Below, in pieces: positions 1 through 19,891 of a stretch of DNA of 20,990 bases. The position numbers were made by a program, and so were the translations under genes. This DNA is from a virus (Duplodnaviria; Heunggongvirae; Uroviricota; Caudoviricetes): IMG/VR virus record IMGVR_UViG_2939121850_000005. One strand, 5' to 3'. The first letter of the stretch is position 1, and each line of letters opens with the position of its first letter. The notes under the pieces are model-generated. The model did no database searches and was not told where the DNA came from. It saw only the letters and a program-made list of their open reading frames with translations.

Positions 1-258
1 ATGCAAACCGTTATTTTTGGTCGTTCGGGTTGCCCTTACTGTGTGCGTGCAAAAGATCTGGCTGAGAAATTGAGCAATGAACGCGATGATTTTCAGTATC
101 AGTATGTAGATATTCGTGCGGAAGGGATCACTAAAGAAGATCTACAACAAAAGGCAGGTAAACCCGTAGAAACCGTGCCGCAGATTTTTGTCGATCAGCA
201 ACATATCGGCGGCTATACCGATTTTGCTGCATGGGTGAAAGAAAATCTGGACGCCTGA
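1..258 (+). CDS. grxA: Glutaredoxin 1
   Basis: 85-aa ORF with ATG at position 1; CPYC redox motif (GCPYCVRAK); length matches E. coli GrxA; followed by a hairpin. Confidence 0.93.
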   Translation: MQTVIFGRSGCPYCVRAKDLAEKLSNERDDFQYQYVDIRAEGITKEDLQQKAGKPVETVPQIFVDQQHIGGYTDFAAWVKENLDA

Positions 259-2855: not shown

Positions 2856-3074
2856 TCAAAGAGAGAGCGCCACCTGTCCTGATTTAATTGGATGCGGCTG
2901 AACCGGATTTGACTCTTTTGGCGTTGCAATCGAACGAACAAAAGTTTCATGGGTAACAAAAGTATGGCTGCAGTTAATGTTCTGGCACTGGTTGTAACGC
3001 TCTTTGGTCAATGAAGATACCTGAAAACTGCTGCGAGTATGGGCGGCACTTCCACACAGTGGGCAAATCATCAT
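2856..3074 (-). CDS. ogr: Ogr/Delta-family zinc-finger late-gene activator
   Basis: 72 aa from the MMICPLCGS start (P2 Ogr is 72 aa); Cys pairs CPLC...CQNINC; GGGGAG about 10 nt upstream; lies at the prophage end as in P2. Confidence 0.8.
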   Translation of the reverse strand: MMICPLCGSAAHTRSSFQVSSLTKERYNQCQNINCSHTFVTHETFVRSIATPKESNPVQPHPIKSGQVALSL

Positions 3075-3255
3075 TTTTCGAGTTCTCCCCATTTTTGCTA
3101 AATTCACAATAATGATACCGCATTATTCCATTTTGCAAACTTAAAAGTTCTCCATTGCGAAGAATCATTCCATTTCGAAATCATCAATCCTCACTTCAAG
3201 CTCCAGACTGGTCGTAAAACCGTTATCCGGGCTGACGGTATGCGTCAGAGTCGTA

Positions 3256-4734
3256 ATGGTCCATTCCGCATCATCTAACGAAGCTGACTTAAACCCTAAC
3301 GTCGCCAACCGCAACAAAGGCCCGCGCCGTCAGCCGGAAAAGAATGTCTTCACCGATGAACAGATTGAGAAGCTGGAAGAAATCTTCCATTCCTCCATGT
3401 TCAACTACCAGCGCCACTGGTGGGAAGCCGGAAAAACCAACCGCATCCGCAACCTGCTGAAGTCACGCCAGATCGGCGCGACCTTTTACTTTGCCCGTGA
3501 AGCCCTGATTGACGCCCTGCTTACCGGACGTAACCAGATTTTCCTTTCCGCCAGTAAGGCACAGGCCCACGTCTTTAAGCAGTACATCATCGACTTCGCC
3601 AAAGAAGTGGATGTGGAACTGAAAGGCGATCCGATGGTGCTTCCTAACGGGGCCACGCTTTACTTCCTCGGCACCAATGCCCGCACGGCCCAGAGTTATC
3701 ACGGCAACCTGTATCTGGATGAATATTTCTGGATACCGAAATTTCAGGAGCTACGCAAAGTGGCTTCCGGTATGGCTATTCACAAGAAATGGCGGCAGAC
3801 CTATTTTTCCACACCATCCAGCCTGACCCACAGTGCTTATCCGTTCTGGTCCGGTGCGCTGTTCAACCGTGGACGCAACAAAGCCGACAAGGTGGACATT
3901 GATCTGTCCCACAGCAATCTGGCCCCCGGCCTGCTGTGCGCTGACGGGCAATACCGCCAGATAGTCACCGTGGAAGATGCGGTGCGCGGCGGCTGTAACC
4001 TGTTCGACCTTGACCAGTTGCGCATGGAATACAGCCCGGACGAATACCAGAACCTGCTGATGTGCGAGTTTGTGGACGATCTCGCGTCCGTGTTCCCGCT
4101 CAGCGAACTACAGGCGTGCATGGTGGACAGTTGGGAAGTCTGGACCGACTTTCATGCACTGGCGCTGCGCCCGTTTGGCTGGCGCGAAGTGTGGATCGGT
4201 TATGACCCGGCAAAAGGTACGCAGAACGGCGACAGCGCCGGATGCGTGGTGGTGGCACCGCCAGCCGTGCCGGGCGGTAAGTTCCGCATTCTTGAGCGTC
4301 ACCAGTGGCGCGGGATGGACTTCCGCGCCCAGGCTGACGCCATCAAAAAACTGACTGAACAGTACAACGTGACATACATCGGTATCGACTCAACCGGCGT
4401 CGGTCACGGGGTTTACGAGAACGTGAAAGCGTTTTTTCCTGCCGTCCGGGAGTTTGTCTACAACCCCAACGTTAAAAATGCCCTGGTACTCAAGGCCTAC
4501 GACATTATCAGTCACCGCCGTCTGGAGTTTGACGCCGGACACACCGACATAGCGCAGTCATTTATGGCAATTCGTCGCGCCACCACCGCCAGCGGCAACC
4601 GCCCGACCTATGAAGCCAGCCGCAGCGAAGAAGCCAGCCATGCCGATCTGGCGTGGGCAACAATGCACGCACTGTTTAACGAGCCGCTGCAGGGCGAGTC
4701 CGCCAATACCAGCAATATTGTGGAGATTTTTTGA
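3256..4734 (+). CDS. P: Terminase ATPase subunit (P2 gpP family), possibly N-terminally truncated
   Basis: 492-aa ORF; Walker-A-like KSRQIGATF and Walker-B-like LYLDEYFW, then a nuclease-like C-terminal half; about 100 aa shorter than P2 gpP as I recall it; stop overlaps the Q start. Confidence 0.75.
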   Translation: MVHSASSNEADLNPNVANRNKGPRRQPEKNVFTDEQIEKLEEIFHSSMFNYQRHWWEAGKTNRIRNLLKSRQIGATFYFAREALIDALLTGRNQIFLSASKAQAHVFKQYIIDFAKEVDVELKGDPMVLPNGATLYFLGTNARTAQSYHGNLYLDEYFWIPKFQELRKVASGMAIHKKWRQTYFSTPSSLTHSAYPFWSGALFNRGRNKADKVDIDLSHSNLAPGLLCADGQYRQIVTVEDAVRGGCNLFDLDQLRMEYSPDEYQNLLMCEFVDDLASVFPLSELQACMVDSWEVWTDFHALALRPFGWREVWIGYDPAKGTQNGDSAGCVVVAPPAVPGGKFRILERHQWRGMDFRAQADAIKKLTEQYNVTYIGIDSTGVGHGVYENVKAFFPAVREFVYNPNVKNALVLKAYDIISHRRLEFDAGHTDIAQSFMAIRRATTASGNRPTYEASRSEEASHADLAWATMHALFNEPLQGESANTSNIVEIF

Positions 4735-5762
4735 TGGGAAAGAGTAAGAAGAACCGCGCTGTGTCGACGAACCAGATTCAGCATAAAAGCCAGACTTCAG
4801 CCGAAGCATTCAGCTTTGGCGATCCCGTTCCTGTTCTGGACCGCCGCGAACTGCTGGACTATGTGGAATGCGTACAGACAGATCGCTGGTATGAGCCGCC
4901 AGTGAGTTTTGACGGACTGGCGCGAACCTTCCGCGCTGCCGTGCATCACAGTTCACCAATTGCGGTGAAATGCAACATTCTGACCAGTACCTACATCCCT
5001 CACCCGCTTCTCAGCCAGCAGGCTTTTTCACGTTTTGTGCAGGACTATCTGGTATTTGGTAACGCTTACCTGGAGAAACGCACGAACCGGTTCGGTGAAG
5101 TTATCGCCCTTGAGCCTGCTCTGGCAAAATACACCCGACGTGGGTTAGACCTGGATACCTACTGGTTTGTGCAATACGGTATGACAACCCAGCCGTATCA
5201 GTTCACGAAAGGCAGCATCTTTCATCTGATGGAACCGGATATCAACCAGGAGATCTACGGCCTGCCCGGTTATCTTTCTGCTATTCCGTCAGCCCTGCTC
5301 AACGAGTCCGCCACGTTGTTCCGCCGTAAGTATTACATTAACGGCAGCCATGCAGGCTTCATCATGTATATGACCGATGCCGCGCAAAACCAAGAGGATG
5401 TGAACAACCTCCGCAACGCGATGAAAAGCGCCAAAGGTCCGGGCAACTTCCGCAACCTGTTTATGTACTCGCCTAACGGCAAAAAGGACGGGCTTCAGAT
5501 TATCCCGTTGTCAGAGGTCGCAGCGAAGGATGAGTTTTTGAATATCAAGAACGTGAGCCGGGACGACATGATGGCGGCACACCGCGTGCCGCCGCAAATG
5601 ATGGGGATAATGCCGAATAATGTTGGGGGTTTTGGGGATGTGGAAAAGGCTAGTAAAGTCTTTGTCCGAAATGAATTAATTCCGTTACAAAAAAGGCTTA
5701 TAGAAATTAATACTTGGCTAAATGAAAAAATCATAGCATTTAATGATTACTCATTAAATTAG
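4734..5762 (+). CDS. Q: Portal protein (P2 gpQ family), 3' end recoded by AT-rich DNA
   Basis: ATG at 4734 overlaps the P stop (TGATG) with GGAGA upstream; 342 aa; base composition falls from about 53% to 27% GC near 5640 within the last 40 codons. Confidence 0.75.
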   Translation: MGKSKKNRAVSTNQIQHKSQTSAEAFSFGDPVPVLDRRELLDYVECVQTDRWYEPPVSFDGLARTFRAAVHHSSPIAVKCNILTSTYIPHPLLSQQAFSRFVQDYLVFGNAYLEKRTNRFGEVIALEPALAKYTRRGLDLDTYWFVQYGMTTQPYQFTKGSIFHLMEPDINQEIYGLPGYLSAIPSALLNESATLFRRKYYINGSHAGFIMYMTDAAQNQEDVNNLRNAMKSAKGPGNFRNLFMYSPNGKKDGLQIIPLSEVAAKDEFLNIKNVSRDDMMAAHRVPPQMMGIMPNNVGGFGDVEKASKVFVRNELIPLQKRLIEINTWLNEKIIAFNDYSLN

Positions 5763-5785
5763 ATAAAAAGGGGTTAATCACCCCT
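5763..5785 (-). terminator. Intrinsic terminator for the KAP NTPase gene
   Basis: Hairpin aggggt-taatc-acccct at 5769..5785, followed on the minus strand by TTTTTAT; lies directly between the convergent Q and KAP genes. Confidence 0.5.
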
Positions 5786-5792
5786 ATAAAAA

Positions 5793-7445
5793 TCACAAAA
5801 ATCGCCTTACACGCATTTTATTAATCGCAGATTCATCTCCAATTCTTATCAAGGCATCCCTTGCCTTTTTCCCTATACGATTCATTCTATCAGAACCATT
5901 ACTAAAATTTCCGAATTTAAGCGCCGTAGCTATTATTGAATCACCACCATCAAGAATGACATTTTTAAATAATTGATAGTAGTCATCTACTGAAGCAGCA
6001 TCCAATATTTCCTCATGTCTATCAGACCAACCATTCTGACCTGATAATTTCTTAAGAACATCATATATTGAACCATCAATATTTATAATCTTAGAATAGG
6101 CTTGAATTTTTGACAACAACTCAGTATCTCTTACGGGATGAACATTCACATAAATAGATTGAACATATTCCTTTAGAGCATCGTTACCATAATTAATAAA
6201 CTGTTCAATCAATTCACTCGCCTTAGCATTCTCTCCGAAATCCCTATATAGTCCGACAACATTATCTAAATCACTTGGAGTCACATATTTCATCCCATCA
6301 ACCACCGCTTGATATAGCTTGTCAACAACCTGATTTTGATTGTCATCAAATGAATTATGAAAGAACTGCCATGCCTCAGATAAGGATCCTCGTTTATTAT
6401 CACGCGTAATCTCCTCATTCCTTAGGCTTATTTGTCTTTGGAAACTGCTCTTATCAAGATAGCCATATCTAACCATATCAATAAGAACCTCATCAAGATC
6501 ATTCGTTTTTCTATATCCATATTTAAGCAAGGTATTAAGCCAGACTTTCTCATGGCCTTCTTCCTTGTCATTATAAGTATATATATTCCTCACTCCCCTA
6601 ATATATTCTAGTGATGGCACATCTCCCTCTGGAGAAAATCCGTAATGGCTCCAACAATACAGAGTTAATGAATGCGCAACTTCATTTGAAATTGTCTCAA
6701 CATCACCTATAATATTTGGTGTTAAGGACACGAAAAAACGTTCTATCTTTTTTAAGATTCGAATATTCTTGATACCTAAAGAAATGGAATATTTACTTAA
6801 CAAGTTATAAACATGAGAATCACCTTTATAGGCTATATCTGCGCATTCTTCTGGTGTTGGATTGTAAGTGATATCTCTATCAATGACCTTTTCTTTATAA
6901 GTAGAATAATCCTCCATACTAGCTGTGCCATTGTTAAGCAATAGAACCACCTTACAATCCTTCTGCTCTTTTAATAGAGATACTAGCCCTAAAACATCTT
7001 TAACATCTAAATTTTTGCCACGCCTTTCTAAGTCATCTATTACTACAATCATTTTAGAAACGGTCAGAAATGACATTGCTTCAAGTGTCGTAGAGAAGTT
7101 TTTTACAACAGGAACTTCTTTTAACAAACCTGCTGCTTTTCGAGAAAATGATTCAAAAAGTCCACTTGCGTTTGTTGTTGCTGTCTCCAAATCAGGTTTA
7201 TTTCCAATATATTCCTTTGTAATTGCATTCTCAAAAATAGAATACTTTAAAGAATCTAGTGAATTTATACCAAAAAGAGAGACATAACTATATCTATTAA
7301 ATGCAACCTTATCTTTATTATCTTTTAGGAACGTATTCCAAGTATAGGTTTTACCAATTCCCCATTCACCCTGTATAGCCATTACTTCTGGTTCTGTAGA
7401 TGAGATAAAATCTGACAACTGTTCTTTGATAAACTCTAAGGACAT
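5793..7445 (-). CDS. KAP-family P-loop NTPase (candidate defence cargo)
   Basis: 551 aa from the ATG at 7445 (GGAGAA upstream; the six-frame track extends it to 7637); Walker A GEWGIGKT (nt 7347..7370) and KAP-type VVIDDLERR motif; about 33% GC. Confidence 0.7.
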   Translation of the reverse strand: MSLEFIKEQLSDFISSTEPEVMAIQGEWGIGKTYTWNTFLKDNKDKVAFNRYSYVSLFGINSLDSLKYSIFENAITKEYIGNKPDLETATTNASGLFESFSRKAAGLLKEVPVVKNFSTTLEAMSFLTVSKMIVVIDDLERRGKNLDVKDVLGLVSLLKEQKDCKVVLLLNNGTASMEDYSTYKEKVIDRDITYNPTPEECADIAYKGDSHVYNLLSKYSISLGIKNIRILKKIERFFVSLTPNIIGDVETISNEVAHSLTLYCWSHYGFSPEGDVPSLEYIRGVRNIYTYNDKEEGHEKVWLNTLLKYGYRKTNDLDEVLIDMVRYGYLDKSSFQRQISLRNEEITRDNKRGSLSEAWQFFHNSFDDNQNQVVDKLYQAVVDGMKYVTPSDLDNVVGLYRDFGENAKASELIEQFINYGNDALKEYVQSIYVNVHPVRDTELLSKIQAYSKIINIDGSIYDVLKKLSGQNGWSDRHEEILDAASVDDYYQLFKNVILDGGDSIIATALKFGNFSNGSDRMNRIGKKARDALIRIGDESAINKMRVRRFL

Positions 7446-7573
7446 GTGTTTTCTCCTAGAAAGATAGCCCCGTATTATAACCCTAGAATTATAAAAGTAA
7501 TGAGCGCGCGCTCGTATCCCCGCCACGCCTGCCCGCTTTATGTAGTGTTTTTCATGCACCTGCATGACATAGG

Positions 7574-7599
7574 CAAAAGCCCGCCAGTTATGACGGGCC
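7574..7599 (-). terminator. Intrinsic terminator downstream of the 883-aa gene
   Basis: Stem gcccg / cgggc with a 10-nt loop at 7579..7598, followed on the minus strand by CTTTTG. Confidence 0.45.
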
Positions 7600-7735
7600 T
7601 CAGCATAAAAGATCCCTAAACGATCATGCGTTTTCATGCAGCATAGTTATGCAGGACTATCTATACATCGACAATCTCAGCTTGACCTCATCAGTCGACA
7701 TCAATCTATATGTCGAGTAACTTGACAGGAACCAT

Positions 7736-10387
7736 TCATTGATCCACAAGAGATAAACTAATCTTTTGCTCAACAGCGTTGAAATCGTTCTCTATACGCA
7801 CCCATAGTACTTTACCTTTGGAATACTCATTCATACGGTTAAAACCTGCAGGCAGTTTTGATTTATGTATTAACCCTGTAATTTTTCCTGTAAAGTTAAC
7901 AAAAACACCATATCTATGATCGCAATTCCGTACAGTACCTTCTAATATATCACCTGACTGATACCTAGCTTCGAACTCTGCCCATTCAGGATCGCGTATC
8001 TTTTCCGCAAATGACTTAACAGCATCAATTGCAGGTTGGATATCAGTTAGCCCGTGATATTCATCTCCAGAAATAAATTCGCCTGAAAAACTTGCTATCG
8101 TTTCACGTTGATTTACAAGAAAATCAACTAACTCCTTAGCATTAGCACTAACCATTTCTTTATTATACTGATTTTGAACTGACCCCATCCTTTCAGAGAC
8201 TCTTCTGGCAATTTGCTCAGTAGGGAAAAGAGTATCTTCTGCTAACGCGGCTAGATAGCTAATATTTGAGAGCATATCCAAATGCACAAACCCAGCCGAG
8301 GATAATCTTAGTAAGTCTTCATCAGTTATTCCAGTCTCTCTAAAATCCTCTGAAACTAAACATTGCCCCTGAAGTAAATAATCGACCTCACGAGTTATAA
8401 CCTTTGGAGAAAAACCAAACTTGACTAATCCGTTTTTTAACGCAAACAAAGGAAAGTATCCTTTAAGTCCAGTTGGACCACTTACCCCAAAATTATTATA
8501 GAACCATTTCAAAATTGCAAACCTAGTAAAATGATTAGCCCTCTCATCATCTTTTTCCGTCGAAAATATATTTTTAAGGTATGAGTTATCGCTATCATAA
8601 AATCGACGATTTAATCGTAATAACACTCTGGTCACAATATGTAAAGGAAGCGCATAGCGTCCTTCACTTTGCCTTATTTTTAAAAACTCACCTTCAGTAA
8701 TATGCCCACTAGTGCAGAACTCCAAGAAAATTTCCAAAGCCCTTCGTATATTTCTTCCTGAAAGACCAACAATCATCCTTCTTATTTGTGCATCATGTAC
8801 AAAAATAGAGTTTGCGATTGATGTTAAATAATATGAACGTTCGTCCTTGCTATATTCAACATTAAAGCCGTTAGGAAGTGAATATGAAAGAGTATTGCTA
8901 GCACTAGTTTTTGTCATTTCTTTAAGAACAAGCTGCACTCTTGAATGAAGAACATAATTAAACAACGGTGGTTCAATACGGAAAACCATATCTTTTAAAG
9001 CGGTGTCAAGAGGAGGACGATCTCTATAATTATCATAAGTTTCTTCTCTCAAGGGAAGAATTATTAGTGATCTAAACTCATTTTGGAGCCATTGAGCAGC
9101 CTGAAACATTAGCAACTGTTCAGACAAAGTTCTTTTATCACAATTATCAAGAACTATTACAACTAATTTACCGCGCTCTGTCCCACAATACCGAGTATAG
9201 GCAAGTGCAGTTTCATGTAAATCTGACTTACATTCCCTAATAATTTTAAACAATTCCTTATTATATTCATCCCCAGAAAGTAATTGCCCCTCCCCCTTAT
9301 TAAACTTATTTATCTCAACAGAATAGAGTTTTTTTAAATTATCCAACAAATCAAAATCAATATCTGGGTAAGCTAACTTACATTGTTGAATTATTTTCCC
9401 TCTAAGCCAATCATAAACTTCCCCTGAAGAAACCGGGGATTCATTCATATTAAAACGTAACCAAAGAGTGGTTTTAATAATATCATTTGGGAGCGCGACT
9501 TCTTTTAAATGATCAATGAAAGTTGTTTTTCCTGAACCAACACTGCCAACAATCAATAAAATTTTATTTTCAAGCGGAGATCGCCCTCTAAATTTTTCAA
9601 TTATTTCTTTGGGATTATCAGTATCTTCAATTAATTTAGAATCACTATTGCTTACTGGTTGAGCAGCCCTGATAATTTTATCTATTGGCTGGGTATAGCG
9701 GTCCCTGCGCTTAGATGAAATATACCCTTCACGAGCGATAAACTGTCGATCATTCAGTGTATTTGGATTAAATATATTTCCATACTCTGATATAAGTGTT
9801 GCACCAAAACTATTATGCCCCACCTCTTCGTTCTGAGCTGCCTTCCCTCCCATCATTCTCCTAGGCTTCCAGAATTTTCTAGGTTTTGATTTAGCTATGA
9901 ATTCCTCAGATAATTTCGAGAGAGCTGTAAACGAAAATTCCTCTAAAAAATTTGCACAATTTTTATCAACAGGTGATATCTCATTTAATCGGTAACTACC
10001 CTGGTTATTATCCCATTCCCCCGCAAGCCACTCATATCCATCAGTAGCTATGATTTTGGTAAGAGGATTCATACCACTCTCATATTTTGCATTCAACTCT
10101 AGCGCATATAATCGTGCTTCCTGAAAAGCGCTATCTAAATCCTCTCCAGGAGTTTTTGCTTCTACTAGTAATACAGGAACACCATTTATAATTACAAGAT
10201 AGTCTGGATAATATATTTTTTTGGTACTACCTTTACCTATCTCTAAGCTTTTAATATTTCTTTTAGTGAGTATATACTCTTTATTTATGCCAAGCCCATC
10301 AACAGATTTCTTAGTCAGAAACGGATAAATTATTTTTTGTTCGATATCACTTTCTGTTTCCTTTACTTTATTTATCTTACTACTCAT
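7736..10387 (-). CDS. Multidomain protein: restriction-endonuclease-like PD-(D/E)xK motif, P-loop NTPase and C-terminal S1/OB domain (candidate defence cargo)
   Basis: 883 aa; YPDYLVIINGVPVLLVEAK (aa 60-78); Walker A GSVGSGKTT (nt 9521..9547); Walker B VVIVLDNCD (aa 409-417); S1-like signature GDILEGTVRNCDHRYGVFVNFTGKITGLIHKSKL...GKVLWVRIEN in the last 75 aa; AAGGA RBS; about 33% GC. Confidence 0.75.
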   Translation of the reverse strand: MSSKINKVKETESDIEQKIIYPFLTKKSVDGLGINKEYILTKRNIKSLEIGKGSTKKIYYPDYLVIINGVPVLLVEAKTPGEDLDSAFQEARLYALELNAKYESGMNPLTKIIATDGYEWLAGEWDNNQGSYRLNEISPVDKNCANFLEEFSFTALSKLSEEFIAKSKPRKFWKPRRMMGGKAAQNEEVGHNSFGATLISEYGNIFNPNTLNDRQFIAREGYISSKRRDRYTQPIDKIIRAAQPVSNSDSKLIEDTDNPKEIIEKFRGRSPLENKILLIVGSVGSGKTTFIDHLKEVALPNDIIKTTLWLRFNMNESPVSSGEVYDWLRGKIIQQCKLAYPDIDFDLLDNLKKLYSVEINKFNKGEGQLLSGDEYNKELFKIIRECKSDLHETALAYTRYCGTERGKLVVIVLDNCDKRTLSEQLLMFQAAQWLQNEFRSLIILPLREETYDNYRDRPPLDTALKDMVFRIEPPLFNYVLHSRVQLVLKEMTKTSASNTLSYSLPNGFNVEYSKDERSYYLTSIANSIFVHDAQIRRMIVGLSGRNIRRALEIFLEFCTSGHITEGEFLKIRQSEGRYALPLHIVTRVLLRLNRRFYDSDNSYLKNIFSTEKDDERANHFTRFAILKWFYNNFGVSGPTGLKGYFPLFALKNGLVKFGFSPKVITREVDYLLQGQCLVSEDFRETGITDEDLLRLSSAGFVHLDMLSNISYLAALAEDTLFPTEQIARRVSERMGSVQNQYNKEMVSANAKELVDFLVNQRETIASFSGEFISGDEYHGLTDIQPAIDAVKSFAEKIRDPEWAEFEARYQSGDILEGTVRNCDHRYGVFVNFTGKITGLIHKSKLPAGFNRMNEYSKGKVLWVRIENDFNAVEQKISLSLVDQ

Positions 10388-10400
10388 ACTCTAGTCCTTA

Positions 10401-10434
10401 TCAAACCAAAAGGCACTTAATTTCTTAAGTGCCT
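10401..10434 (-). terminator. Terminator-like hairpin in the leader of the 883-aa gene
   Basis: Perfect 10-bp stem aggcacttaa / ttaagtgcct with a 4-nt loop, followed on the minus strand by TTTGGTTTG, about 15 nt upstream of the RBS. Confidence 0.4.
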
Positions 10435-10896
10435 ATAATATAGCGTCTGGTAATTTAATAAAAGTCACATGTCAATATCAAAATAAAAAGGCACCTTGAG
10501 ACTAGACCCATAAAAACAAAAAGTCAACATGTTATTTCATACAGTGTGAAAATTAAAGATTTTACAAAACAATAAGTTACAAATCAAACGCGCAATCACA
10601 TGTTGACTGACATCACATATTTAAACTGAAGTAGTAACTTCATTTGCCTTATAGTCTCATGTAACAATTACACTGTTCCTTTAGAGAAGGAACCTTATCT
10701 CTATGAGAACTGTTATATAAACACTTGATGTAAAAAAGCTCAATACCATAGCTACCGCCCATGAGGCTACAGATTGCTGCTTGGGGATATAGAAAGCACA
10801 AATTATAGTAACGATCTGATTCAATAGAGTTCATTTCCATCAAGCTAATCTTCTAGCTTTTATCGATCATTATTTCAATGCACATACAGACTCCCT

Positions 10897-11085
10897 TTAA
10901 CTGGAAACTTCCGTTGACCGGCTGTATTCATGGCTGCGAATTTTCGCCATCAGCTCGTCTGTCAGTTCGGACACCCACTGGATAGCCAGCCGCTTTTCTT
11001 CGTCGCTGCACTCACTAGCCGCTACAAGCTTGATAAAAAAATCAATACGCTGAAGCTTCAATGACTCCAAAAGATAGTCCTGCAT
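10897..11085 (-). CDS. Small hypothetical protein (62 aa) downstream of a LexA box
   Basis: ATG at 11085 preceded by AGGAGG with a 4-nt spacer (MQDYLLESLKLQRIDFF...); identity not recognised. Confidence 0.45.
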   Translation of the reverse strand: MQDYLLESLKLQRIDFFIKLVAASECSDEEKRLAIQWVSELTDELMAKIRSHEYSRSTEVSS

Positions 11086-11133
11086 CTTCCCTCCTATCAT
11101 TACACGGATACACAAAAACTGTATATACACCCA

Positions 11134-11149
11134 CTGTTTATATAAACAG
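11134..11149. promoter_or_regulatory. LexA (SOS) box CTGTTTATATAAACAG
   Basis: Perfect palindromic CTGT-N8-ACAG about 50 nt upstream of the small ORF on the minus strand; TATAAT directly adjacent on the plus strand; a weaker CTGTATATAC half-box lies at 11119. Confidence 0.5.
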
Positions 11150-11243
11150 TATAATAGGAACAGAAAAATGTAAAACTGTTTTTTGTCAGTTAATTGGATG
11201 TACTGATGTCGGTCAATAAAGCACAAAATGTTAAACAGCAGCC

Positions 11244-13637
11244 TTAGTACCATTGACGCCATTTGTCATCTTCCTGCAGCCTCTGGTTACGGTAAAAAAT
11301 ACGTAAACCGGCACCGGATGGAATGCTGCCGCCACGCAGAAGCAAATCAATCTCAGATGCACTACCTTCAAACCCCCTGGTTGTCAGTTCTGCCTCAAGC
11401 TGCAGGCGCTGCTGCTCCAAAATACTCTGTATGTATGCTTTTTTCCGCTTCGGTTTTACCAGTCTCAACCTGGCTGTCAGCTCCCGCCGTTCCTTCTGGC
11501 CCATGTTGTGGAGATATTCCTGCAGCTCCTTCTCATCCATGGTTTTAATATCGGGTAAATCACCCCCTGATTTGTTCAGATTTTCAACAGGGGGACAGTT
11601 ATTGCCACGAGTCCAAGGGGCGCAAGCGCCCTGGTCGGCTGCCGCCTCCTGAACGTCAACGGCTTTACGAACCATTTTCCACTTCACTGCATGAGTGCAG
11701 ATCTTGCCCTCTGCAATGGGTGACCAGATGCCATAAATACGAATGCCATGATCGCCATAGGCGGTCGGCTCTTCGTTGATTTCATAAGCGGTTCTGATGA
11801 GGTGATATTTACGGGGAACCAGTACGCCGCCCTGCTTCATGATGTAGGTGGCAAAACAACCAGCATCAGCAGCAGCCAGAATGGCATCAAGACGCGGGTT
11901 ATCCAGTACCGGCGCACCTGCTTTTTTGTCACCCTGTTGCCTTGCCGCCTGACCAGCCAGCAAGCGAAGTTCACGGTAAGCCTGACGCCCCGGAATACCA
12001 AAGAAGCGGAATTGCTGAACACGATGCAGAGACGCCCAGGCATTCACGTATTCAGCGTTATCACGCAGAGATTTACCCGTTTCCTTGCTGATCTCGCCAG
12101 CCAGACCACGACCGTCAATGTTCTTACTGATATATTTCGCGATGTAGCTTGTCGGCGTTCCTTTGCGCGGGTTAATCAACTCAGACTTAAAGCGCGGCCC
12201 AGTGTTATTGCCCAGCTCCTCGCGGTCTTCACGGATGGCAAACTTACGCAGTAATGCAGTGATGGCACGGCGGTCTTTTTTGCGCATGAAACACAACAGG
12301 TGCCAGTGAACTGTGCCATCATGATGCGGCTCAGCCACCCGCACGCCATACCAGCGCAACCCGGCTTTGTGCATCGCCTTACGAAATGCAGCAAACATAC
12401 CGACCAGATAATCGCTGCTTTGTCTTACCGTCGCGTTTGTCCAGGTCGGGTTTGGTCTGCCGTTATTTAGCGTGGAATGGAAACGCGACGGACAGGTGAT
12501 AGTGTAGAAAACGGCGCAGTCACCGCGCATTTCCGCGATAAGCTCCAGACCTTTAACACAGGCCATCATCTCATTGCGGCGATGCGCAGGGTTGCTGCTG
12601 CTGGCGTTTACCACATCCTCCATGTCCAGCGTGTCGCCGTCTTCGTTCACCAGTTCATGAGAACGGAAAAACTCCAGCGACTTACGACGCTGCTCACGTT
12701 TATGCATCACGGCTTCATAGCTGACATAAGGAGATGCTTTTTTGCTGACCAGGCAAACAGCGCGCAACTGCTCTTCCCGCCATTCGCAACGCATCTTCCA
12801 TAATTTCCGATACCACCAGTCGGCGCACAACATACGCGCCAGCGAACCCGGAATGAGTTCATAGGGCACGGGTTTACGGCGGTTTCTTTTCCGACGGAGT
12901 TGCTCAAACGCAGGTGGGATGACATCCAGACGCAGGGTTTCCGCTGCCACCTTTTCCCATGTCTTGCGGATTTCTTCTGGCTTAACGTCATCGGTGGCAT
13001 ACAAATCACCACAAGCTGCATCAAGGCACATACTCATATGCGCAGCTACCAGGGTGGAAAGGCGTTTCACCTGATCCTGACTCATTTCAGGCAGGATCAG
13101 CAGGCCGTCCAGCCCTTCATGGCTTGCCATAAAGCGAAAAGATGCAGATAGCTGACTGTCGCGTACATGCTCCAGTCGTTCCAGACATGGCTTAATCGTC
13201 TCACGTAAATAGCGGGAATAAGCCTTTGGCCTGCCCAGGCTGCTGAAGTATTCAATACGTTGCATCAGCGGCTTGCTGATATGGGAAGGCTGGGCGTTGA
13301 CGTCCGCCAGAATGACCATGTCTGAATTAAAACGCTGCTGCTCATGCGCCAGCTTTGCCCGGCTAATGAGCTTATCCTGCTCCATTTCGCGCTGGACAGG
13401 ATCACGTGATTCATTAAAGAAATAACGCTCCCAGACCTGATCACTCAGTGCCTCGCGGCGCAACTGTTCCTGCTCGTTATCGGCAGCGTACAGAGTGATC
13501 AGGTTTGAAAGCGTAGAAACCGGCGCAACTTCCGCCGGGTCCAGATAAGGGTTAATGGCCTTTTTCGGGCTGTTCCATGAGAATGCTGCGGCAGCCTCGT
13601 TAAAGCCGCAGCAGTTGTTCATATCGGCATGACTCAT
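11244..13637 (-). CDS. A: Replication initiation endonuclease (P2 gpA family, HUH rolling-circle Rep)
   Basis: 797 aa; HUH motif [10 protein letters not shown] and double-tyrosine motif [13 protein letters not shown]; GGAG RBS; ATGA overlap with the upstream dam stop. Confidence 0.8.
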
Positions 13638-18575: not shown

Positions 18576-19891
18576 GGGTCTTCCCTTGTTGTGGTGGCTG
18601 AAGGCATGATAATGGTGTATTTAATCGCCAGAGGTCACCGCCATGGACGAAAAGTCCCTCTACGCTCATATTCTCAACCTGTCCGATCCGTGGCAGGTAA
18701 AGTCCCTTTCTCTCGATGAAAATGCCGGTTCTGTTACTGTCACTATTGAGATCGCTGAAAACACCCGGCTAGCCTGTCCGACCTGCGGTAAATCCTGTTC
18801 TGTTCACGATCACCGTCATCGTAAATGGCGCCATCTTGATACCTGCCAGTTCACCACTATTGTTGAAGCCGATGTTCCACGAATTATGTGTCCGGAGCAT
18901 GGCTGCCTGACGTTGCCTGTTCCGTGGGCTGGCCCCGGAAGCCGGTATACGTTGCTATTCGAATCGTTCGTTCTCTCATGGCTGAAAATCAGCACCGTTG
19001 ATGCTGTCAGGAAGCAACTTAAGCTCAGTTGGAATGCGGTTGACGGCATTATGACCCGGGCAGTTAAGCGAGGTCTTGCCCGGATAAAAAAGCCATTATC
19101 CGCCCGTCATATGAATGTGGATGAGGTCGCCTTTAAAAAAGGACATCGTTACATAACGGTGATCTCCGATCGCGATGGTCGGGCGCTGGCCTTAACGGAT
19201 GATCGCGGCACAGAGAGTCTTGCCGGCTATCTTCGCACGCTCACTGATGGGCAGTTGCTGGCTATCAAAACGCTCTCAATGGACATGAACGCGGGCTATA
19301 TAAGAGCAGCGCGTATCTACTTACCCAGTGCGGTTGAGAAAATCGCCTTTGACCGCTTCCATGTGGCGAAGCAACTGGGCGAGGTAGTTGATAAAACCCG
19401 TCAGAATGAACATCCGCACCTCCCTGTTGAAAGCCGACACCAGGCAAAAGGAACCCGCTTCCTGTGGCAGTACAGCGATAAGTGGATGACCGAATCCCGG
19501 CAGGAAAAGCTGATGTGGCTGCGTGCACAGATGAAGCTGACGAGCCAGTGCTGGGCGCTGAAAGAGCTGGCAAAGGATATCTGGAACAGGCCATGGAGCG
19601 AGGAAAGACGGAGTGACTGGCAGAGATGGTTGGCGCTGGCGGCTAACAGTGACGTTCCCATGATGAAAAATGCCGCGAAAACGATAGGAAAAAGGCTGTA
19701 CGGGATCCTGAATGCGATGCGACACAGTGTCTCAAACGGAAATGCGGAGGCACTTAACAGCAAGATCAGGCTGCTGAGGATAAAAGCCAGGGGATACCGA
19801 AACCGGGAGCGCTTTAAACTGGGGGTGATGTTCCACTACGGAAAGCTGAATATGGCGTTCTGAGCCTTCCCACCATGATCGGGGAAGACCC
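18576..19891 (+). mobile_element. ISL3-family insertion sequence (1316 bp)
   Basis: Imperfect terminal inverted repeats beginning GGGTCTTCCC at both ends (left 18576..18604; right 19864..19891, reverse complement); one transposase ORF; flanked by an 8-bp direct repeat. Confidence 0.75.
18643..19863 (+). CDS. ISL3-family transposase
   Basis: 406 aa; N-terminal Cys/His zinc-finger (CPTCGKSC...CPEHGC), DDE-type core, C-terminal SNGNAEALNSKIRLLRIKARGYRNRERF typical of ISL3 transposases; GAGGT RBS. Confidence 0.75.
   Translation: MDEKSLYAHILNLSDPWQVKSLSLDENAGSVTVTIEIAENTRLACPTCGKSCSVHDHRHRKWRHLDTCQFTTIVEADVPRIMCPEHGCLTLPVPWAGPGSRYTLLFESFVLSWLKISTVDAVRKQLKLSWNAVDGIMTRAVKRGLARIKKPLSARHMNVDEVAFKKGHRYITVISDRDGRALALTDDRGTESLAGYLRTLTDGQLLAIKTLSMDMNAGYIRAARIYLPSAVEKIAFDRFHVAKQLGEVVDKTRQNEHPHLPVESRHQAKGTRFLWQYSDKWMTESRQEKLMWLRAQMKLTSQCWALKELAKDIWNRPWSEERRSDWQRWLALAANSDVPMMKNAAKTIGKRLYGILNAMRHSVSNGNAEALNSKIRLLRIKARGYRNRERFKLGVMFHYGKLNMAF

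Follow-up and report, generated by a model that had tools for sequence, protein, structure and literature searches.

A probable cos region of the Fels-2/186 type between two cargo genes in a P2-family prophage remnant of Escherichia coli

The 290-bp spacer (7446..7735) that separates two cargo genes in a 20,990-nucleotide stretch of viral DNA from IMG/VR, the whole of which is referred to here as the window, is very probably the cos (cohesive-end DNA-packaging) region of a P2-family prophage of the Fels-2/186 type, together with the ends of the cargo cassettes that adjoin it on both sides. The main value of this assignment is corrective, in that an apparent promoter and operator region is better understood as a phage packaging site. 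An earlier, sequence-only reading of the spacer had located its features correctly and had rightly treated the neighboring genes as two units, but it had taken part of the site for an operator and had not recognized the cos region as such.

The window holds a defective prophage remnant of the P2/186/Fels-2 type from E. coli, flanked, according to the annotation, by the host genes ybjL (a paralogue of yidE) and rcdA. Its genes are arranged in the order ogr, a 'D/'P fusion, Q, the KAP gene, the spacer, a gene for a protein of 883 aa, a small ORF, gpA, dam, and, farther on, CII/CI, ISKox3, and int. The ogr gene and the 'D/'P fusion occupy ~2856..4734, the portal gene Q lies at 4731..5762 and gpA at 13637..11244, and ISKox3, a copy of an ISL3-family element situated between a CI-side ORF and int, is found at 18643..19863. 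The gpP gene is annotated as a pseudogene, joined to a D fragment and missing its N terminus, and gpM and the remaining late genes are absent from the prophage as annotated; intact copies of the cognate terminase genes gpM and gpP are accordingly not found in the same element. With gpM, the N terminus of gpP, and all other late genes lost, the cos region is an orphan relic without action in cis, a circumstance that affects the use of the site but not its identity. A 4.8-kb stretch around the spacer is 100% identical in 108 complete E. coli genomes, and the D/P deletion junction is common to 105 of the about 108 E. coli genomes that carry this pair of cargo genes, so that this is a single clonal, defective element.

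Identity and conservation of the cos block

The conserved part of the spacer is a non-coding block of 150 bp (7504..7653, minus strand), whose conservation in other phages is far above chance. The stretch from about 7503 to 7653 matches a non-coding block in 93 records of Peduoviridae (P2-family phages) at 85-90% identity. Among these are Fels-2, RE-2010, SopEPhi, and many P2-like phages of Klebsiella, Yersinia, and Escherichia, and in every one of the phage records the matching block has the gpA-side genes on one side and the portal gene Q on the other. In Fels-2 and RE-2010, it has the same position and orientation as in the window, following the gpA/DinI-side genes and preceding a different cargo gene, which is in turn followed by Q. 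In an alignment of 44 distinct relatives, similarity extends from (G/C)TGCAT at one boundary to CGCGCGC at the other, with unrelated sequence on both flanks. The neighborhood in the window reads gpA, cargo, cos, cargo, Q, with the 5' end of the 19-mer that forms the cohesive end reading toward Q, and this order and orientation agree with those in P2, 186, Fels-2, and SEN8.

The internal organization of the block is best seen against phages for which cos has been annotated. The circular junctions of P2, 186, PSP3, and P4 were rebuilt from both ends of their linear records, cos being annotated at 1..19 in those of P2, 186, and PSP3, and were compared with the window without gaps after anchoring at the nick. 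Five elements are common to the six sequences compared (the window, Fels-2, P2, 186, PSP3, and P4): three motifs of the form (T)GCAT(G) between about -128 and -95, an inverted repeat around -65..-54, the sequence ATGCAnnTGCATkAAAA at -36..-20, the sequence AAGCGGGCr at -9..-1, and the 19-nt cohesive end, which is followed by yGCGCGC at +20..+26. On its minus strand, the window reads CATAAAGCGGGCA up to the nick, then GGCGTGGCGGGGATACGAG, then CGCGCGC. The distal cluster of three (T)GCAT(G) motifs is located at 7621..7653 (minus strand), in a register equal to that in P4, P2, 186, PSP3, and Fels-2; the exact sequence TGCATGAAAA has two copies in the window, both of them within the cos block and the second at 7640..7631. 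The proximal motif, which here takes the form ATGCAGGTGCATGAAAA (7549..7565, minus strand), is likewise found in P2, P4, 186, and PSP3. The TGCAT repeats and the inverted repeat may serve as binding sites for proteins; two recent papers, on P2-like diversity and on lateral transduction, give no information on sub-sites of cos.

Within the block, the stretch shared by P2 and P4 corresponds to a core of 55 bp (7504..7558, minus strand; -29..+26 from the top-strand nick). Compared without gaps, the core of the window is identical to that of Fels-2 at 54 of 55 positions, to PSP3 at 44, to 186 at 43, to P4 at 42, and to P2 at 41, so that it is shared even with a satellite, P4. Because the interval -29..+26 spans exactly 55 bp, of which 52 are identical between P2 and P4, it fits the "55-bp core" of Ziermann & Calendar 1990, as that work is quoted in PMC5694545 and PMC9594776. 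The cos function of P2 and P4 is itself established (PMC9122126, PMC9594776).

The predicted 19-nt 5' cohesive end, GGCGTGGCGGGGATACGAG (7511..7529, minus strand), is of the GGCG(A/T)GGCGGGGA... type and matches the annotated cos of 186 and PSP3 at 15 of 19 positions and that of P2 at 14 of 19. The predicted nicks, 19 nt apart, would fall between 7530 and 7529 on the minus strand and between 7510 and 7511 on the plus strand. An identical cos 19-mer has been given for the Salmonella phage SEN8 in a genome announcement (PMC5427200), and the SEN8 record starts with this 19-mer and ends in ...AAAGCGGGCA, that is, it is cut exactly at the nick predicted here. As the SEN8 19-mer is labeled a "putative cos site" and was assigned during annotation, the nick positions proposed for the window rest on homology to P2, 186, and PSP3. 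The terminase of a functional phage of this type, made up of the small subunit gpM and the large subunit gpP, would recognize the roughly 150-bp block and nick it at these two positions, leaving 5' cohesive ends of the sequence given above.

The same features recur in a broader set of 120 distinct cos junctions, obtained by scanning IMG/VR with a cos core pattern and supplemented with phage records. TGCAT at -29..-25 and AAAA at -23..-20 are each conserved in 118-120 of the 120 junctions, and positions +15 and +18, which are outside the bases fixed by the search pattern, are identical in all of them. The CGCGCGC at the right edge of the core (7504..7510, minus strand; +20..+26) mirrors GCGGGC(A) at -7..-1 (7530..7536). 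Its GCGCG (+21..+25) is conserved in 119-120 of the 120 junctions, whichever gene comes next; conservation is still 112/120 at +26 and collapses at +27 (58/120), beyond which the sequences are unrelated. Positions -2, -3, -5, -6, and -7 are complementary to +21, +22, +24, +25, and +26, respectively, in 93-100% of the junctions, and these mirrored GCGCGC and GCGGGC flanks suggest a partly symmetric nicking site.

At columns that are conserved at 90% or more, the cos block of the window has five private changes, two of which are in the hairpin (7590 and 7593), a number that is at the high end among close relatives and is not decisive for decay. These changes are compatible with drift of an unused cos, and the site may be decaying.

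Palindrome, hairpin, and competing readings of the block

The perfect palindrome GAGCGCGCGCTC, for which the earlier coordinates (7502..7513) are correct, is made up of the last three bases of the cohesive end (GAG, +17..+19), the CGCGCGC of the core (+20..+26), and two bases of the cargo cassette (TC, +27 and +28). Ten of its 12 bases (7504..7513) thus belong to the 55-bp cos core of P2, P4, 186, PSP3, and Fels-2, and the predicted bottom-strand nick, between 7510 and 7511, lies inside it. As the outer bases fall in a variable zone, the full 12 bp are found in only five of 44 close relatives that have the same 19-mer; the palindrome at the same center reaches 8 bp in 17 of these relatives and 10 bp in 16. 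As such, the palindrome is unremarkable, since the window has six perfect 12-bp palindromes against 5.8 +/- 2.3 in Markov-1 simulations, and 9% of simulated spacers hold one. It most likely represents the right-hand edge of the cos core, straddling the bottom-strand nick.

The sequence-only reading had instead suggested that this palindrome may be an operator for an unidentified regulator, lying where the -35 element of a promoter for KAP would be; the spacer would then be given over mainly to transcriptional control. The symmetry is indeed perfect, its position is 8-14 nt upstream of the -35 region expected for the TATAAT hexamers of the spacer, and the KAP cassette does seem to have a -10 element of its own. 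The GC core, however, tracks cos throughout the junctions surveyed, whether these stand before unrelated genes or directly before Q, and is therefore conserved with cos irrespective of the gene downstream; symmetry past 8-10 bp is not conserved, palindromes of this length occur at the chance level, this one has a single copy in the window, and the annotation of the neighborhood shows no regulator gene beside it. An operator is thus a very improbable account of the palindrome, and a secondary regulatory use of its GC-rich center is at most formally conceivable. Slightly less probable again is that the block is a small regulatory RNA or a cis-regulatory leader, as might be suggested by a conserved non-coding sequence with a stable hairpin and a T run behind it: a covariance-model search of 7200..8000 against Rfam 15 gave no match at E <= 1, no promoter is called upstream inside the block, and the cos core, together with repeats held in common with P2 and P4, accounts for the conservation. 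The least probable of these readings is that the block is coding and specifies the N-terminal 64 residues of a KAP protein of 614 aa, as in the RefSeq/PGAP model (5793..7637), which starts at 7637 and runs across cos. From ATG 7637 the window does have an open frame, as annotated in RefSeq, but this frame contains a stop codon within the block in 24 of the 44 relatives, so that the PGAP model is an over-extension; the same block stands before unrelated genes, and the PADLOC and Pfam models and all homologues begin at MSLEF (7445). The start at ATG 7445..7443, which has AGGAG at 7457..7453, 7 nt upstream, is the correct one, and the spacer has a length of 290 bp only with this start. Homologues of KAP in three other loci (L027 and L102, at 77-79% amino acid identity, and L012, at 42%) stand directly behind the same cos with the same MSL... 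start, and distant phage homologues align from residue 1.

The minus-strand hairpin at 7598..7579 had also been placed accurately. It reads GCCCGTC-ATAACT-GGCGGGC and is followed by TTTT at 7578..7575; hairpin and T run together take up 7575..7601, with a core stem formed by 7598..7592 and 7585..7579. With a folding energy of -20.3 kcal/mol (z = -3.98; matched by 1 of 200 shuffles), it is the sole listed feature of the spacer that stands out by itself as bare sequence. Downstream of the stem there is only UUUU, followed by GCCU, and the T run is conserved in relatives. A simple scan for promoters and terminators over 5500..11500 made no call within the spacer and passed over the hairpin as well, probably because the extension of the stem takes up some of the T run. 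The hairpin consensus of the 44 Fels-2-type sequences is GGCCCGCCAG-AA/TT-CTGGCGGGCTTTTGC, which folds at about -24 kcal/mol; in the window, the two private substitutions convert CCAG, otherwise conserved at 90% or more, into TCAT, and the folding energy given above is attained despite them. The hairpin corresponds to the inverted repeat of the family, CCAG-N2-3-CTGG, at -65..-54 from the nick. As 186, PSP3, P4, and further groups have this repeat in a shorter form, at an equal distance from the nick and without a T run, it looks like a sub-site of cos that has been lengthened into a terminator-like hairpin in the Fels-2 lineage.

The Fels-2-type hairpin with its T run is probably a terminator as well, ending the transcript with the 883-aa gene. 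A rival account, which is unlikely but carries more weight than any of the alternatives considered above, holds that the hairpin acts at the DNA level only, as a cos sub-site for the binding of terminase or a host factor or for bending, and that transcription of the 883-aa gene continues across cos into KAP. The short-armed repeat without a T run in 186, PSP3, P4, and most other groups speaks for such a restricted role, as does 186 itself, in which the annotated terminator t95b is upstream of the cos block and not inside it. Covariation is also nearly absent among the 44 relatives (paired cells, 94.8%; only two double changes), so that a role in RNA and a role in DNA are inseparable by this means. 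In the Fels-2 type, however, the arms are extended to a G+C-rich stem of 9-11 bp, the TTTT that follows is nearly invariant and is confined to the strand transcribed from the A side, and this hairpin is the only terminator candidate between the stop codon of the 883-aa gene and KAP. The two roles are in any case not mutually exclusive, and a hairpin that is part of cos and most likely also stops the upstream transcript remains the preferred reading.

Cargo genes on the two sides of cos

The slot between cos and Q is occupied by a gene for a KAP-family P-loop NTPase of 550 aa (5793..7445, minus strand), which matches the Pfam family KAP_NTPase (E = 3.6e-7) and, in an alignment that begins at residue 6, the PADLOC candidate single-gene defence family PDC-S49 (E = 6.9e-28). 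A cassette-specific leader of 58 bp (7446..7503, minus strand) lies between this gene and the cos block and contains, in addition to the ribosome-binding site AGGAG, a candidate -10 element. Two TATAAT hexamers had been put forward as promoter elements, and both are present on the minus strand (7493..7488 and 7479..7474), but only the second is conserved with the KAP cassette: the first reads GATAGT in the leaders of the two close KAP homologues, whereas GGGTTATAATA and the ribosome-binding site are conserved there. TATAAT occurs 18 times on the two strands of the window. The hexamer at 7479..7474 is a perfect -10, the best -35 match in the leader is 3/6, and the scan called no sigma-70-like site in the spacer. 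KAP is most likely transcribed from a promoter of its own within the leader, combining this consensus -10 with a weak -35. At the other end of the slot, Q and KAP are convergent and only 30 bp apart (5763..5792), with one hairpin, AGGGGTTAATCACCCCT at 5769..5785, whose T run is on the KAP strand only.

The slot between gpA and cos holds the 883-aa gene (7736..10387, minus strand), the product of which has an HSDR_N nuclease-like N terminus, a P-loop ATPase region, and, at the C terminus, an S1 RNA-binding domain. PADLOC matches to this protein are only faint, and a tblastn search of 50,697 phage records returned no homologue, so that assortment cannot be traced from this side; the gene is regarded as an uncharacterized candidate defence gene. 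The 82 bp between its stop codon and the cos block (7654..7735, minus strand) form an element-specific 3' tail of the cassette, with no similarity to the 44 aligned relatives upstream of the block. This tail includes 13-nt direct repeats 45 bp apart, at 7659..7671 and 7704..7716 (ATCTATACATCGA and ATCTATATGTCGA on the plus strand), and an inverted repeat centered on GTCGAC.

Farther upstream, a perfect LexA-box-like palindrome, CTGTTTATATAAACAG, is found at 11134..11149, between the end of gpA and the small ORF (11085..10897, minus strand). The minus strand also has a terminator-like hairpin at 10434..10411, AGGCACTTAAGAAATTAAGTGCCT with TTTGGTTT behind it. It is only 23 nt upstream of the start codon of the 883-aa gene, a placement like that of t95a, the partial terminator after tum in phage 186. 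Because the succession of LexA-like box, small ORF, and hairpin resembles the p95-tum-t95a-orf97-t95b arrangement of 186, the right-end operon, possibly with the 883-aa gene included, may be under SOS control.

That the two cargo genes are separate units and not one operon, as the sequence-only reading had concluded, is right, and for a stronger reason than had been given. Between the genes there is a stable hairpin with a T run, the KAP cassette has its own conserved -10 element and ribosome-binding site, and in other loci this cos, with different upstream neighbors, precedes a KAP homologue. The genes are on opposite sides of the cos cleavage site and thus at opposite chromosome ends in virion DNA: in the packaged chromosome, KAP would be at the extreme left end beside Q, and the 883-aa gene at the extreme right end. 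One of the loci with a close KAP homologue (L027) has a Fels-2-type gene as the upstream neighbor, and the locus with the more distant homologue (L012) has no homologue of the 883-aa gene. The two cargo genes have been independently acquired and assort independently.

Lineages of the family differ in how the two slots are used. In a survey of cos-to-Q distances across loci L011-L130 and phage loci, grouped by the type of cohesive end, 25 of 30 Fels-2-type loci have a distance of at least 559 bp, and 23 of 27 P2-type loci one of about 185 bp. The cos-to-Q slot is accordingly filled with cargo in 25/30 loci with the Fels-2-type end and in 4/27 with the P2-type end, indicating that the preferred cargo side of cos differs between lineages. 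The cos-proximal locus between gpA and gpQ is a known hotspot for defence genes (PMC9122126), and the interval between cosL and Q is described in PMC5694545, with reference to Dodd & Egan 1996 and Nakayama 1999, as a known site of foreign-gene uptake. The pair formed by the 883-aa HSDR_N/P-loop/S1 gene and KAP does not appear in the main text of the hotspot papers.

Several consequences follow for annotation. The RefSeq gene model for this KAP NTPase wrongly crosses cos, and the gpA-gpQ "hotspot" consists of two slots parted by cos, so that genes found across cos from each other should not be assumed to form one system. For KAP itself, the match is to a single-gene candidate family, and its assortment does not follow that of its neighbor. 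The conserved elements of the block also make up a compact map (three distal TGCAT motifs, the inverted repeat at -65..-54, the proximal TGCA-TGCAT-AAAA, and the mirrored GCGSGC flanks) that could be of use in designing cosmids for P2-type transducing particles. A more speculative proposal, and a decidedly improbable one, is that the orphan cos can be used in trans by a Fels-2-type helper and that the hairpin is both a site for terminase or a host factor and a terminator insulating the two slots. If this were so, a superinfecting or co-resident helper could package the remnant of roughly 18 kb, perhaps in dimeric form, and the packaged DNA would carry int, CI, replication genes, and two candidate defence genes, making the remnant an incipient satellite-like element.

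Comparison with known cos regions and cargo loci

The general strategy of the site is familiar from phage lambda, in which cos (cosQ-cosN-cosB) combines staggered nicks in a partly symmetric site with repeated elements on one side to produce 5' cohesive ends. The site in the window would work alike, but it has no sequence homology to that of lambda, and its ends are of 19 nt rather than 12 nt.

Homology begins with the cos regions of P2, 186, PSP3, and P4, which, like that of the window, lie between the right end of the early region and Q in equal orientation. These sites also give 19-nt 5' ends and have the same succession of AAGCGGGCr, the cohesive end GGCG(A/T)GGCGGGGA..., and yGCGCGC, with TGCAT repeats and an inverted repeat in the register of the window and a core identity of 41-44/55. 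They differ in the last six bases of the cohesive end (TACGAG in the window, AAGCAT in 186, and AAGCAC in P2), in the inverted repeat, which is extended to a terminator-like hairpin in the window, and in the presence of a cargo gene between cos and Q, as Q in P2, 186, and PSP3 begins within about 185 bp. The replacement in the window reaches the stop codon of Q, and the tQ/tW terminator that follows Q in P2, 186, and PSP3 is gone.

The gene content to the right of gpA finds its closest parallel in the SOS operon of 186, p95(LexA)-tum-t95a-orf97-t95b, which ends just before cos. The window likewise has a LexA-box-like sequence after gpA, a small ORF, a hairpin, a cargo gene, and a hairpin before the nick. 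Unlike the 186 operon, however, it has no annotated homologue of dinI or of the C-terminal part of tum, and its only candidate terminator before the nick is inside the cos block, whereas t95b is upstream of it. Variable genes between gpA and gpQ, as found here, are also characteristic of the cos-proximal hotspots of P2-like phages, such as the old/tin locus and the retrons Ec67 and Ec86 next to cos (PMC9122126). For P2-like phages, foreign genes in the interval from cosL to Q are reported in PMC5694545, and the gene in this position in the window is one that matches PADLOC family PDC-S49.

The nearest relatives of the site are the Felsduovirus-type cos regions of Fels-2, RE-2010, SopEPhi, SEN8, and many P2-like phages of Klebsiella and Yersinia, which have an identical 19-mer (for SEN8, PMC5427200), a core identity of 54/55 (Fels-2), 85-90% identity over 150 bp, the same hairpin, and cargo on both sides. 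The window is set apart from them by its five private substitutions, of which the hairpin has two, by its state as a terminase-less remnant, and by other cargo genes. The region is thus a known kind of element, a P2-family cos of the Fels-2/SEN8 type, in a layout with flanking cargo that is already known.
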